Source: a phage | Sequence record: PV636258.1 | DNA: 64,000 nt | Reading direction: 5' to 3' (one strand) | The notes under the pieces: model-generated | What the model was told of the DNA's origin: nothing | Databases searched by the model: none | Seen by the model: only the letters and a program-made list of their open reading frames with translations | Translations under genes and position numbers: made by a program | Shown here: one piece after another, positions 22,753 through 59,180 of the stretch | Numbering within the stretch: position 1 is the first letter of the stretch | Layout of the letters: every line of letters begins with the position of its first letter

Positions 22753-22786
22753 TTCAATAAACGTATCTCCAATATAATAACGGAGA
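22753..22786 (+). promoter_or_regulatory. TTCAATAAA box plus hairpin with TATAAT loop, candidate promoter for gene 22815-23384
   Basis: TTCAATAAA at 22753-22761, 11 nt, TATAAT at 22773-22778 lying in the loop of TCTCC/GGAGA hairpin; ATG 37 nt downstream. Confidence 0.45.
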
Positions 22787-22814
22787 CATTTAATCAATTC
22801 GGTGAGGCTCCGAA

Positions 22815-23384
22815 ATGCACATTAACACAGCAATCATGAAACACATTATTCCTTTATTGGCAAAATACGAAGGGGAACGTGCCACGAAAATCCCTTTTGG
22901 AACAATCACAGATGAAGTGAAACGCCTGACGGGTAAAAGTATCAATTTCCGTCGCGTTGTTGAATCTGCGTTAGAGTTGGCCCGTTCTGATTTACAAAAT
23001 CCAACATTTTCATTTAATATTGACGTAACTTCTTCACTTCGTCAAGAATTGGAAGAATCATCACAAGCGCGGCGCGATCGTTTCCGTCATTTATATGTTC
23101 GTAACGAATTCTCCGAAGGTCGTGTTGGTATGAAACTGGAGTCTATTCGTTCTGATATTTGCTTCACTGTCAACTATGTTTTAGAGCCAGAGAGCCAGCG
23201 CATTTATTTTGGCGCGATTATCGGTTTCTATGGGAACTCTATTAATGGTTGGGCAGAACGTGTTGGATTAAAAGAAACCCAGAACAATCATTCCACACCT
23301 TCTACCCATTATATGACGCATGAAGCTGCTGGCGAATATGTTTACCTTCTGCGTCGTGTTGTGAAGTTAGAAGTGTTAAAATAA
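22815..23384 (+). CDS. Hypothetical protein (189 aa)
   Basis: ATG-initiated ORF downstream of promoter-like element; no recognisable motif. Confidence 0.55.
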   Translation: MHINTAIMKHIIPLLAKYEGERATKIPFGTITDEVKRLTGKSINFRRVVESALELARSDLQNPTFSFNIDVTSSLRQELEESSQARRDRFRHLYVRNEFSEGRVGMKLESIRSDICFTVNYVLEPESQRIYFGAIIGFYGNSINGWAERVGLKETQNNHSTPSTHYMTHEAAGEYVYLLRRVVKLEVLK

Positions 23385-23441
23385 CGCTTTATTCAATAAA
23401 TAATTGTAGTAAAGTTAGTTGCATGGAAGGGAGGGAACACT

Positions 23442-23588
23442 ATGTTTTACATGATGTTACTCCTCATCCTCCTGATCGGGATTACCTGCTCTCTCCTGGG
23501 TCTACCCGATCAGTCCGGTAAACAGTTGCCCACTTCGGCGCATCCGGTTTTGAGTGAAGGTTCGTCCGCACTGCTGTGGGCAGTGTAG
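23442..23588 (+). CDS. Small hydrophobic peptide (48 aa), speculative
   Basis: ATG with GGAGGG SD 7 nt upstream; MFYMMLLLILLIGITCSLLGL predicted transmembrane; below the ORF-track length cutoff. Confidence 0.3.
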   Translation: MFYMMLLLILLIGITCSLLGLPDQSGKQLPTSAHPVLSEGSSALLWAV

Positions 23589-24409
23589 CTCAAAGGGGAG
23601 AGGACTTTTCAAATTAGCTGGGCTGTAGTATAGTAAATTTTATGGTGTAAAGAGTCGGGCGACCAGCGGTGTAAAGGCTGAGGCCAAGCACAGTCCTAGG
23701 ACGAGGACTCCGGCTCCATAAGTCAATATCCACCTCGCTGGTGTCAGTGGACGCACTTGACCGTCGGAGAACGAAACTCCCTGTTGTAGCGTGATTAGCT
23801 CAGAATCAGAGAGCACCCCGTTGGCAAGTCGACACCAGCATATAAGGGGAGGTCGGGGGCGCTAATCTCCATCACGCCGACAACATTATGAGTCTTCATA
23901 GAGGGTTCATAATGTTGCGTCAAAGGGCAACAAGGTTCCTGTTGGTAACATAATTATTCCTACTGTCTTCCCGGATTTTAGGAGCGCCAACAGGCGAGGC
24001 CGGATGCGTAAGTTCCGGCAAATCGATGGTGAGGTGGTGCATTGGTGACACGGGGTAGCGCCCAGAAGTGTGGTTCGATTCACACCCTCTCCAACAAAAA
24101 TAAAAGGTTTTATCAATAACGGGTTACAAAGTATAGTTAACTCACTGAACGGCAAGCTGTTTGAGTCCTGGCCACTCATAGCGATGTGAGACCAAGACAG
24201 GTAGGTTTAGGACTCAAACAGGTTTTCGTTCTCGTTGCTTGCGACTTTGCGGGTTTTTAGAAACTGACCACAAAGATAAATGCAAACGATAACACGTTCC
24301 TGGCAGTAGCTTAACAGCCATACACCAGTGAGGTCTTCCGATTCCTCATCACCAAATTCGGCGCACTAAAATAGACGGGAGGGTGTGATTAATAATCTCC
24401 CGTCGACGA

Positions 24410-24536
24410 TGCCGTTATATCTGACTGTCCAAAGGGGATAAGCTCCTGAGTAAGCAGAGGTGGGTTGCCTAAGTCAGATGGGATGTAAGGTCAGCGCTGG
24501 CCAAGCATTTGGGTTCGACTCCCTAAAACGGCTCCA
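24410..24536 (+). ncRNA. Extended tRNA-like element (about 127 nt): acceptor-like stem, T-arm-like hairpin and 3-prime CCA
   Basis: 5-prime GCCGTTA pairs 6/7 with AAACGGC placed directly after a GGG-TTCGACT-CCC T-arm; followed by T then CCA; body far too long for a canonical tRNA. Confidence 0.25.
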
Positions 24537-24623
24537 CATCTTAGAGGACATTGACAGGTGGAAGCATTTGGCGCCAAATGCTCGTGGCGGGTTCGAGTCC
24601 CGTGCAGTGTCCTCTAAGATGTG
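24535..24623. repeat. 16-bp perfect inverted repeat enclosing a tRNA-like core
   Basis: CACATCTTAGAGGACA (24535-24550) and TGTCCTCTAAGATGTG (24608-24623); interior holds 18-nt perfect palindrome GCATTTGGCGCCAAATGC and T-arm-like GCGGG-TTCGAGT-CCCGT. Confidence 0.7.
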
Positions 24624-58103: not shown

Positions 58104-58146
58104 ATCTGGAGGGTGAAATTCCCTCCAAACAAGCGAGGGGTTCACC

Positions 58147-58425
58147 ATGTTTGTATATTTCCGCAGTCTCTCATTGCTGGCTTTCTTCTATTGGTTGTTC
58201 GATATCTTATGCCCTCGTTTTATTAAAGAGGAAGTTGCTTTTGTCAATCATGAAGGCCAACAAGATTTATGGATACCTCTTTGCGCTCTTTCTGATGTAA
58301 CCGAATCGGATGAAGTGGGTATGGTTGGCACCATGCGTTCATTTAATTTATTTGGATTCGCATTATTCCCTAAGTTAATTGGAGAATTACGCCCATACAA
58401 TCCTGATATAGAAGTGGAGGCGTGA
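58147..58425 (+). CDS. Small hypothetical protein (92 aa)
   Basis: ATG-initiated ORF; hydrophobic N-terminus. Confidence 0.4.
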   Translation: MFVYFRSLSLLAFFYWLFDILCPRFIKEEVAFVNHEGQQDLWIPLCALSDVTESDEVGMVGTMRSFNLFGFALFPKLIGELRPYNPDIEVEA

Positions 58426-58426
58426 T

Positions 58427-58738
58427 ATGTCAAAATTATTGACTCCAAAATTATTATCAATGGGTGGTTCCATATATTTTCATTGTCCTGGATGTAATAT
58501 GCTTCATCCTTATCGCATTTCAGGGCAAATGCCTGGCCCAATATGGCAATGGAATCACGATCTCGAATCACCGACTTTCACTCCTAGTCTGTTGGTGAAT
58601 CATTCTGATCCAAATAACCGTTGCCATTTATTTTTGACAGATGGTAAATTACAATTCCTCGGAGATTGTTTCCACGAATTAAAGAATCAAACCGTGGAGA
58701 TGGTCGATATTCCTGAACCTGAAATATGGATAGATTAG
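58427..58738 (+). CDS. Small Cys-containing protein, possible zinc ribbon (103 aa)
   Basis: GGAGG SD; CPGCN ... C ... C pattern. Confidence 0.45.
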   Translation: MSKLLTPKLLSMGGSIYFHCPGCNMLHPYRISGQMPGPIWQWNHDLESPTFTPSLLVNHSDPNNRCHLFLTDGKLQFLGDCFHELKNQTVEMVDIPEPEIWID

Positions 58739-58741
58739 ATT

Positions 58742-59155
58742 ATGAAATTACTTGGATATTTTCGTTCTTTGCCTACTGGATCTCCTAATGGGTGTCAATT
58801 ATACTCTGAAGTGAAAGGGGACGTGGACGACACTCACATCGCCTTGTATGCTCGTGATATACCTGACCCAACCAAGTTTGATCGGCGTGTTGTGGCTGCT
58901 GCCAACAAATATGGTGATGTGATCGTTGTAAGCGCCCGACATCACGACAAATTGATGAACACGCAACTCAAACGATTGAAGGAAGCAGGTATTATCGAAA
59001 CCACCCACACTCGTGAACAAGGGTTTATTGATAACTATGGGCAATGGATGTCCCGTGAAGAGGCCGCTGTGGTCGCCCGTGAAGCCGGACAAACTAATCA
59101 GGTCCGTTTGAAGAACACTCCTTTCAAAGAACTCTTTTCCGAAGACCTCTATTGA
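58742..59155 (+). CDS. Hypothetical protein (137 aa)
   Basis: ATG-initiated ORF. Confidence 0.45.
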   Translation: MKLLGYFRSLPTGSPNGCQLYSEVKGDVDDTHIALYARDIPDPTKFDRRVVAAANKYGDVIVVSARHHDKLMNTQLKRLKEAGIIETTHTREQGFIDNYGQWMSREEAAVVAREAGQTNQVRLKNTPFKELFSEDLY

Positions 59156-59180
59156 ATAAATTGGCGGTATAATTGCCGCC
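59152..59180 (+). promoter_or_regulatory. Variant TTGAATAAA box plus hairpin with TATAATT loop
   Basis: TTGAATAAA 59152-59160; GGCGG-TATAATT-GCCGCC hairpin 59163-59180; gene start at 59205. Confidence 0.4.

Follow-up and report, generated by a model that had tools for sequence, protein, structure and literature searches.

Putative promoter-terminator cassettes carrying a TTCAATAA box in a ViI-like phage

The closest described system to the elements reported here is that of the promoter-early stem-loops (PeSLs) of the T4-type phages RB49 and phi1 (Arbiol et al. 2010, PMC2839356). PeSLs combine sigma-70-like early promoters with stem-loops of G and C runs that overlap the -10 element or lie between the -35 and -10 elements; their promoter and terminator activities and the formation of mini-circles have been shown experimentally, and they have a role in modular shuffling (PMC2839356). 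Here, we analysed a recurrent intergenic element in a phage DNA record (PV636258.1), in which the 9-mer TTCAATAAA, or its 8-mer form TTCAATAA (the box), precedes a -10-like hexamer that often lies in a hairpin. The whole stretch of 64,000 nucleotides (nt), referred to as the window, belongs to a Kuttervirus (Ackermannviridae, ViI-like phage) and is 99% identical to Salmonella phage PM10.

Both are short intergenic composites of an upstream stop codon, an AT-rich stretch, a promoter read (here by prediction) by sigma-70, a G-run/C-run stem-loop (here a putative terminator), a Shine-Dalgarno sequence and a start codon. The stem-loop often lies over the -10 element. PeSLs are repeated in each genome, beside small ORFans and at mosaic junctions, and the present elements may be distributed likewise. 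PeSLs differ in having a normal -35 element at normal spacing, whereas a fixed TTCAATAA box stands 12 nt from the -10 hexamer here; moreover, the present phage is a member of the Ackermannviridae, and the promoter and terminator activities of its elements are predictions.

Three promoter types of T4 also bear on the comparison. In T4 middle promoters, the 9-bp MotA box, (a/t)(a/t)(a/t)TGCTT(t/c)A, has its centre at -30 and precedes a -10 element of the sigma-70 type by 11-13 nt. The boxed sites, which we call class B, are built alike, with the box in place of the -35 element 11-13 nt upstream of the -10 hexamer and with replication and nucleotide-metabolism genes behind them. The initial annotation of the window had drawn this analogy, which is good for the geometry only (a 9-bp box near -30, 11 nt from the -10): the box is TTCAATAAA and not a MotA box, homologues of MotA and AsiA are not detectable in PM10, the closest complete genome, and terminator hairpins do not typically enclose the middle promoters of T4. 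To our knowledge, a recurrent TTCAATAA in or upstream of promoters is not a described feature of T4. T4 late promoters reportedly lie in hairpins that sequester the ribosome-binding site (genes e, soc, 49 and I-TevI), as McPheeters and colleagues are said to have found in 1986. The layout is similar in that a promoter sits in an inverted repeat, read-through RNA folds into the hairpin, and RNA started internally, having no 5' arm, avoids it. The T4 hairpins block translation and their promoters are gp55-dependent, whereas here the hairpin would be a terminator and the -10 is of the sigma-70 type. T4 early promoters (-35 GTTTAC, -10 TATAAT, AT-rich upstream) resemble a further group of sites in this phage, class A, and differ from class B, which has no GTTTAC-type -35.

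A box in fixed register with a -10-like hexamer

The window contains 10 copies of the exact 9-mer TTCAATAAA, where shuffled sequences yield 1.38 +/- 1.13 (maximum 6); for the degenerate word TTSAATAAA the count is 17 against 2.84 expected. Seven exact 9-mers are intergenic (22753, 23392, 25758, 33324, 37240, 41646 and 44631) and three lie in genes (75, plus strand, in terS; 2155, minus strand; 48862, minus strand, in rIIA), so the word is not always intergenic, as had been stated. Intergenic DNA makes up only 10.4% of the window, yet it holds 8 of the 14 window copies of the 8-mer TTCAATAA (binomial p = 2e-5). The positions given earlier for 22753, 33324, 37240, 41646, 44631 and the variant TTGAATAAA at 59152 are correct; the copy placed at 23393 is present and starts at 23392, and the reverse complement reported at 33303 was found as a minus-strand 8-mer TTCAATAA (33303-33310).

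The complete annotated genome of PM10 (92% coding) served as a 2.5-fold larger sample for genome-wide statistics. Positions 76154-140837 of PM10 (NC_031128) align with the full window at 99% identity, and a 12-kb piece of the window matches about 280 phage records, the top matches reaching 98% (Salmonella phage PM10, CBA120 and SP1). In PM10, TTCAATAA is the top enriched 8-mer of sense-oriented intergenic DNA, with 23 of its 45 copies within this 4% of the sequence. Altogether 28 of the 45 copies are intergenic despite the high coding density (p = 5e-20), and 23 of these 28 have the same orientation as the downstream gene, minus-strand genes being preceded by a minus-strand box.

The spacing between box and hexamer is equally constrained. 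A -10-like hexamer lies exactly 11 nt past the 9-mer in five window copies (22753, 25758, 37240, 41646 and 44631). In four of them it is a TATAAT or TATTAT located 14 nt after TTCAAT, as the initial annotation had it; the fifth, 25758, with TATGAT, had been overlooked, together with a one-mismatch copy at 24112 (ATCAATAAC-N11-TATAGT), two further arrangements of the box (in or upstream of T4-early-like promoters, and as a palindrome) and the dispensability of the hairpin. Class B is defined accordingly as TTCAATAAN-N11-TAT(A/T)AT, with a -10-anchored consensus of TtnTTCAATAAa-N8-gngTAT(a/t)ATT. The hexamers stay near TATAAT (TATAAT at 22773, 37260 and 59168, TATTAT at 41666 and 44651, TATGAT at 25778). 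Across PM10, the spacings between the 8-mer and the next -10-like hexamer cluster sharply at 12 nt, with 8 copies against 0.15-0.19 expected per spacing (p = 4e-11), and to a lesser degree at 6 nt. Within coding sequence, a box in register accompanies only 4 of 877 -10-like hexamers. The spacing peak is repeated in LIMEstone1, a Dickeya phage of another subfamily, with 6 copies at 11-13 nt against 0.16 expected.

The boxed sites of the window are as follows.

22753-22786, plus strand: class B cassette; box TTCAATAAA 22753-22761, -10 TATAAT 22773-22778, no T-run
24112-24137, plus strand: one-mismatch class B copy, ATCAATAAC-N11-TATAGT (PM10 100305)
25750-25783, plus strand: box TTCAATAAA 25758-25766 in the loop of hairpin 25750-25774 (free energy, dG, -10.8; z -2.6)
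37240-37272, plus strand: class B cassette; box 37240-37248 right after the DNA polymerase stop codon (37239), next gene at 37282
41646-41693, plus strand: class B cassette; box 41646-41654, TATTAT 41666-41671 atop the 16-pair hairpin 41652-41687, T-run 41685-41693
44631-44674, plus strand: class B cassette; box 44631-44639, TATTAT 44651-44656 atop the 12-pair hairpin 44641-44668, T-run 44669-44674
59148-59180, plus strand: off-register relative; TTGAATAAA 59152-59160, TATAAT 59168-59173 only 7 nt past the 9-mer (PM10 135556)

These sites lie in the part of the window that follows the late genes. Positions 1-22451 hold late structural genes on the minus strand; from 22815 on, nearly all genes are on the plus strand (small open reading frames (ORFs), four tRNAs, DNA polymerase, rIIA/B and topoisomerase), except for a minus-strand cluster at 31561-34181. 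Genes behind class B sites include the clamp loader, the helicase loader, the thymidylate synthase region and the genes after DNA polymerase.

Hairpins around the hexamer and conservation among relatives

As noted initially, the hexamer lies in or at a hairpin loop at 22753 (weakly), 37240, 41646 and 44631, and T-runs follow two of these hairpins, namely those at 41646 and 44631. At 37240, TATAAT 37260-37265 is the 6-nt loop between AGGGGGA 37253-37259 and TCCCCCT 37266-37272 (dG -15.9, z -2.6; no plus-strand T-run). The hairpins at 41646 (dG -26.5, z -8.0) and 44631 (dG -18.3, z -5.1) are each the best plus-strand terminator-like call of their region. A GC-rich hairpin with a T-run, co-oriented with the upstream gene as in an intrinsic terminator, is present at 41652-41693 and 44641-44674, and this combination is lacking in the other three window hairpins. 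The 41646 element is predicted to be both the intrinsic terminator of gene 41459-41626 and the promoter of gene 41708-41899; that at 44631 stands between genes 44202-44624 and 44675-45058.

The remaining sites are more varied. At 22753, TCTCC 22766-22770 pairs with GGAGA 22782-22786 in a weak hairpin (dG -5.2, z -2.1). This site lies in the 363-nt divergent junction between a late baseplate gene and the first plus-strand gene, 30 nt before the ATG at 22815. Such a junction must hold a rightward promoter, and 22753 is the sole candidate ahead of the first plus-strand gene; the baseplate gene has a CTAAATA motif of its own (22492, minus strand). At 25758, the loop holds the box and not the hexamer. 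The hairpin follows directly after tRNA-Met (25665-25741), TATGAT 25778-25783 stands 11 nt past the box, and tRNA-Asn is located 200 nt downstream. At 59152, the 9-mer overlaps the stop codon of gene 58742-59155, the next gene starts at 59205, and a hairpin GGCGG...CCGCC 59163-59180 surrounds TATAAT (dG -12.7, z -3.4; no T-run); its membership of the family is uncertain. The one-mismatch copy at 24112 lies within 23589-25664, a region of 2.1 kb upstream of tRNA-Met that has no annotated PM10 gene and no Rfam hit, is conserved at 84-99% in relatives, and corresponds to a region of CBA120 with an HNH endonuclease gene.

The association of box and hairpin was quantified in PM10, taking as boxed a hexamer with a box of at most one mismatch 10-14 nt upstream and as a hairpin a stem of at least 5 bp. 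Boxed intergenic -10 hexamers lie in hairpin loops in 11 of 19 cases; without a box the figure is 6 of 143 (odds ratio 31, Fisher p = 2e-8). Boxed hexamers without a hairpin occur at PM10 149215, 50629, 100305 and 56010. Because several boxed candidate promoters have no hairpin and that of 22753 is not kept in another genus, the hairpin is not obligatory. The initial reading of a phage promoter box merged with a terminator hairpin is thus supported by spacing, conservation, hairpin association and statistics, all at the level of sequence, with the amendment that the hairpin is dispensable. An Rfam scan returned the four tRNAs only, and the hairpins match no known RNA family.

For comparison among phages, we used 18 IMG/VR loci around DNA polymerase (protein identity 86-100%) and LIMEstone1. 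Orthologs of 25758, 37240, 41646 and 44631 keep the box, the spacing and the hexamer in this set; box, spacing and -10 are conserved in three lineages, and the spacers diverge. An alignment of 22753 from five phages has ATATTCAATAA and TATAAT invariant and the spacer and flanks diverged, with an indel of 11 nt immediately upstream and loss of the hairpin in the second lineage (another genus). From the sequence, this pattern reads as the classic footprint of a two-part DNA signal. When orthologs and paralogs of the 41646 and 44631 types were aligned, 4 of 12 pairs had double compensating changes, with the box and the loop hexamer invariant. The stems vary yet stay complementary while the box and hexamer are fixed, which argues for selection on structure and, separately, on two DNA words. 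In one relative (L023), a box-N10-TATAGT ends 9 nt before tRNA-Asn, so the predicted start would fall 2-3 nt before the mature tRNA.

Beyond these lineages the picture changes. In the distant Vibrio phage K351, whose polymerase is 50% identical, the box is not enriched in intergenic DNA, and TATAAT stands after the terminator hairpins and not inside them. Because K351 has no such enrichment and an arrangement of its own, the box appears to be lineage-specific; it is present in both Cvivirinae and Aglimvirinae. In an IMG/VR scan for TTCAATAAA-N11-TATWAT, hits in unrelated contigs were single and apparently random among the matches listed. K351, an Ackermannviridae-like phage, also encodes a 600-amino-acid RpoD-like sigma factor beside its DNA polymerase (L027 17650-19452); PM10 has no homologue of this protein and no phage sigma-70-family protein. 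The LIMEstone1 DNA polymerase gene (L026 12001-17043) is in three pieces, with two annotated intron/homing-endonuclease insertions, and the window gene is uninterrupted.

Earlier genome papers met single sites and not the family. Kutter et al. 2011 could not identify the early and middle promoters of CBA120 and likewise found no MotA or AsiA. In Table S2 of the AG3 study, the ortholog of 37240 is listed as the early promoter Porf237 (TTGAttcaataaaccaaagggggaTATAAT), read as TTGATT-18-TATAAT, and one class A site is given the same label. The LIMEstone1 record annotates the 41646 ortholog as a terminator and the 44631 ortholog as a 'terminator' with a 'minus_10_signal putative promoter' inside; its labels for class A sites vary inconsistently between early and middle. 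No open full-text paper naming TTCAATAA in ViI-like phages was found among the texts searched. The 2012 Viunalikevirus paper of Adriaenssens lies outside these texts; its abstract is said to mention 'conserved regulatory sequences', and an earlier description of the box is possible. The box-hairpin family is a variation on PeSL-like elements rather than a new kind of element, and part of it may already have been described.

A proposed cassette mechanism and its alternatives

From these sequence patterns, we consider it probable that the elements are compact promoter-terminator cassettes of the ViI-like phage, many class B sites being set in a terminator hairpin. In the proposed mechanism, TTCAATAA(A) centred at about -30 and a TATAAT or TATTAT 11-12 nt downstream would constitute a phage-specific promoter class. 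Host sigma-70 would read the -10 hexamer, and the box would replace the canonical -35 element; with the hexamer at -12 to -7, the box would occupy -32 to -24 and the centre of the palindromic variant would fall at -30. An inverted repeat surrounds the -10 at most internal sites. RNA coming from the upstream gene would fold into the hairpin, with a U-run at 41646 and 44631, and terminate, and polymerase would start 6-8 nt past the hexamer, in the 3' arm. The predicted starts are at about 22785, 37272, 41678 and 44663, all in the 3' arm of a hairpin. A transcript begun there would have no 5' arm and therefore could not form the terminator. Since the hairpin would stop incoming RNA and the internal start would escape it, one cassette of about 45 nt could insulate two units and restart expression.

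Several points weigh against this proposal. Three of the five window hairpins have no T-run (22753, 37240 and 59152), and the one at 22753 is weak and not conserved. The TTCAAT at 14 nt is unworkable as a sigma-70 -35 element, there is no TGn, and protein scans turned up no activator. The 25758 hexamer overlaps the annotated ATG of a doubtful 65-amino-acid ORF. The box also occurs in class A spacers, upstream in either orientation and as a palindrome, and so cannot be a rigid promoter element at every site. Nor can the copies be treated as independent samples, since part of the likeness is due to common descent, with 41646 and 44631 clearly paralogous. Finally, the literature searched yielded no start-site, RNA-seq, termination or binding data for any member of the Ackermannviridae.

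As to what contacts the box, we tentatively prefer a DNA-binding factor, which would make class B a delayed (middle-type) class and class A the immediate-early one, with the balance of probability leaning somewhat the other way. A more elaborate form of this idea seems unlikely to us. In it, TTCAATAA would be the site of a new activator, non-homologous to MotA, probably dimeric in view of the palindromic variants, and binding at -30. Equally unlikely as parts of it, host polymerase would fire promoters buried in early terminators, which would amount to a temporal gate in one cassette: early transcripts would end at the hairpin, and the module behind it would be switched on only after the factor had been made. 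By binding within the spacer or ahead of class A promoters, the factor could also turn down the early class.

Two alternatives survive best, each possible and each on the doubtful side. The box might be the target of a MotA-like phage activator with sigma appropriation, in which case early terminators would gate true middle promoters. In favour are the geometry, equal to that of T4 middle promoters (box of 9 bp near -30, 11 nt from the -10), the lack of a usable -35, the place of class B sites ahead of replication genes, and the absence of the box from the intergenic DNA of K351, by which it follows the phage lineage. The near-palindrome TTTATT(C/G)AATAAA matches 6 times in the window, where 0.19 is expected; such a sequence hints at a dimeric DNA-binding protein, which its five intergenic copies (the sixth being coding) would suit. 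Against this, the box sequence is unrelated to TGCTTtA. T4 MotA and AsiA searched at the sequence level against six-frame PM10 gave best E values of only 0.29 (tblastn, in gp55) and 0.42 (phmmer), the candidate early proteins of the window contain no Pfam DNA-binding domain, and scans of candidate regulators and early proteins against Pfam, PHROGs and PDB sequences linked no protein to the box.

The other alternative, with about the same modest claim, takes the sites as ordinary host sigma-70 promoters, in which a near-consensus -10 would be combined with a weak TTnTTC at 17 bp and AATAA would be a favoured AT-rich spacer requiring no factor. T is frequent 2-3 nt ahead of the box, which yields TT(c/g/a)TTC at 17-nt spacing, and this TTnTTC is all that the -35 side of the -10-anchored alignment contains. 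PeSL promoters are also sigma-70-like and active in uninfected E. coli. The 37240 site, called a sigma-70 early promoter in AG3, reads TTGATT-18-TATAAT, and it is the only class B site with such an alternative -35. Elsewhere, no sequence near TTGACA lies 16-18 nt upstream of the hexamer; TTCAAT is 14 nt upstream, and the initial judgement that this spacing is too short for a sigma-70 pair was correct. TTnTTC shares only 2-3 positions with TTGACA, and the conserved CAATAA would sit in the spacer, where sigma-70 makes few specific contacts. No class B copy has the TG at -15/-14 of an extended -10 element (TGn), G at -14 being frequent. A generic sigma-70 scan was weakly or not enriched in the region (46 vs 32.6 +/- 5.9; 39 vs 40.1 +/- 7.0).

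We regard it as improbable that the box is an operator through which a phage or host repressor or a nucleoid protein shuts promoters off. Its variable position (in class A spacers, upstream in both orientations, in palindromes) would be natural for an operator, and one palindromic copy lies 75 nt upstream of a phage HU-family gene. However, an operator would have no need of the precise 11-12-nt register that 8-10 copies share and that persists across genera, and class B would be left without any upstream element. The box presumably resembles AT-rich sites of nucleoid proteins; readings as an IHF, CRP or H-NS-like site were considered, and none seems to fit well.

No greater likelihood attaches to the view that the repeats are recombination linkers or relics of duplicated mobile cassettes, alike by descent and not by selection on the box. 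The 41646 and 44631 copies share GTTCTTCAATAAA..GGG.AT.GGGTATTATT and look paralogous. Breakpoints in homology among Kuttervirus genomes come immediately behind two cassettes, at 25780 and 41700, the 63-amino-acid ORF 41708-41899 is absent from two relatives (L012 and L018), and PeSL-mediated shuffling is documented. The breakpoints are consistent with cassette-mediated module exchange as proposed for PeSLs. Together with the roughly 19 boxed candidate promoters of PM10, they may point to a copy number and placement like those of PeSLs; the pairing of an intergenic candidate promoter with a stem-loop, often overlapping the -10, matches the composition of PeSLs. Descent alone accounts poorly for the other copies, which share the box and hexamer with unrelated spacers and stems, and for the orthologous sites, in which the box and -10 are kept while the remainder drifts. 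Moreover, the linker view is compatible with promoter function and is no true alternative to it.

Lastly, that the sites are intrinsic terminators with an upstream A-tract and nothing more, the TATAAT-like loops and box being by-products of AT-rich loops and stop-codon contexts, is highly improbable. In its favour, the terminators at 41646 and 44631 are of textbook form, the helix is lengthened by AAA ahead of the stem and TTT behind it, and stop codons lie 0-20 nt upstream. Against it, the loops resemble a -10 in particular and keep a fixed distance to the box, the four PM10 sites named above are boxed without a hairpin, 22753 keeps its box and -10 and loses its hairpin in another genus, and three of five hairpins have no T-run. 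Hairpin promoters of the N4 type were considered separately and dropped, as the loops are 4-11 nt and not 3, the stems differ, the hexamers are of the sigma-70 type and boxed promoters without hairpins occur.

Other promoter classes, DNA-binding proteins and implications

Two further intergenic sites of the window stand outside the class B arrangement.

23387-23415, plus strand: palindromic box CTTTATTCAATAAATAA; 9-mer 23392-23400, then after 9 nt TAAAGT 23410-23415, upstream of a gene starting at 23442
33291-33332, minus strand: putative class A promoter; -35 TTTACT 33318-33313, TTCAATAA 33310-33303 in the 16-nt spacer, -10 TATACT 33296-33291

Neither 23392 (no structure, z +1.0) nor 33324 has a hairpin, and both are 13-bp palindromes TTTATTCAATAAA. 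TAAAGT and the box of 23392 are kept in four relatives (L016, L018, L021 and L023), with a variable spacer. Upstream of the class A site, the minus-strand TTGAATAAA 33328-33320 corresponds to the plus-strand TTCAATAAA 33324-33332, the two forming a 13-bp palindrome (33320-33332). With TTTACT-16-TATACT, the minus-strand copy at 33303 belongs to a T4-early-like promoter sequence, and the site (33318-33291, minus strand) is predicted to drive the minus-strand gene cluster 33241-31561.

Class A, (g)TTTACT-N16/17-TATA(A/C)T, has 10 intergenic and 2 coding copies in PM10. The intergenic ones are at PM10 2803, 14037, 14526, 21306, 27818, 42122, 43853, 63658, 109463 and 152851; the window site is that at 33318-33291. 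In half of the ten, TTCAATAA lies in the spacer, and in 7 of 10 the -35 is preceded, at 1-16 nt, by another copy of TTCAATAAA or of its complement. Usually a GGGG...CCCC terminator hairpin stands immediately before a class A site, and a cluster of small ORFans follows it. A separate 8-mer, ACATCATG (context aGGAActACATCATG), is enriched at PM10 start codons, 8 of its 19 copies lying in sense-oriented intergenic DNA; it is a translation-initiation context common to early ORFans behind class A, such as the window minus-strand gene ending at 33241.

Among the intergenic words of PM10, CTAAATA(cccc) ranks second in enrichment; it is found 20-45 nt before the starts of structural genes and is probably a late promoter of the gp55 type. 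Its window sites are:

30558, plus strand: CTAAATA(cccc)
22492, 18630, 15019, 12783, 8506 and 1991, minus strand: CTAAATA(cccc)

At 30558, 18630, 15019 and 12783, CTAAATACCCC (ATACCCC) forms the 5' side of a strong hairpin (dG -18 to -20, z about -5). On its 3' side, GGGGTAT stands 3-7 nt ahead of the start codon, at the expected ribosome-binding site. By analogy, this looks like T4-style translational masking of read-through transcripts, in a layout that we take to be that of T4 genes e and soc.

DNA-binding proteins of the phage were noted at two places. PM10 37561-37839 (minus strand), outside the window, encodes an HU-family protein (Pfam Bac_DNA_binding, E = 8e-30), with a palindromic box CTTTATTCAATAAT at PM10 37914 (minus strand), 75 nt upstream of its start. 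The HU-like protein TF1 of phage SPO1 binds modified DNA at early promoters, and the PM10 protein is a possible lead to a box-binding factor. Thymidine is hypermodified in the DNA of this phage, and this may affect how a protein binds the box. In the window, one of the few near-canonical sigma-70 promoters follows a terminator hairpin (52868-52913, hairpin and then TTTTCA-N16-(TG)TATAAT). Behind it, 52957-53466 encodes a 169-amino-acid protein of PHROG 4164 ('histone family DNA-binding'), without a Pfam or PDB sequence match. Relative to PM10, the window has two small indels in the early gene region, being without about 250 nt (PM10 116328-116582) at 40155-40194 and about 440 nt (PM10 139363-139806) at about 62970.

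ViI-like phages (Kuttervirus and relatives) are widely used in biocontrol, diagnostics and engineering. Box-N12-TATAAT, the TTTACT class and the late CTAAATAcccc class would together give a promoter map of three classes, with starts predicted to within a few bases. Such a map would explain the coincidence of terminators and promoters in earlier annotations, and the cassettes may offer compact insulators for phage engineering. If the box needs a phage factor, that factor would be a new activator, retrievable with a 13-bp oligonucleotide. If the activator reading is true, the phage would have an independent early-to-middle switch, in a family whose switch was called unknown by Kutter 2011.

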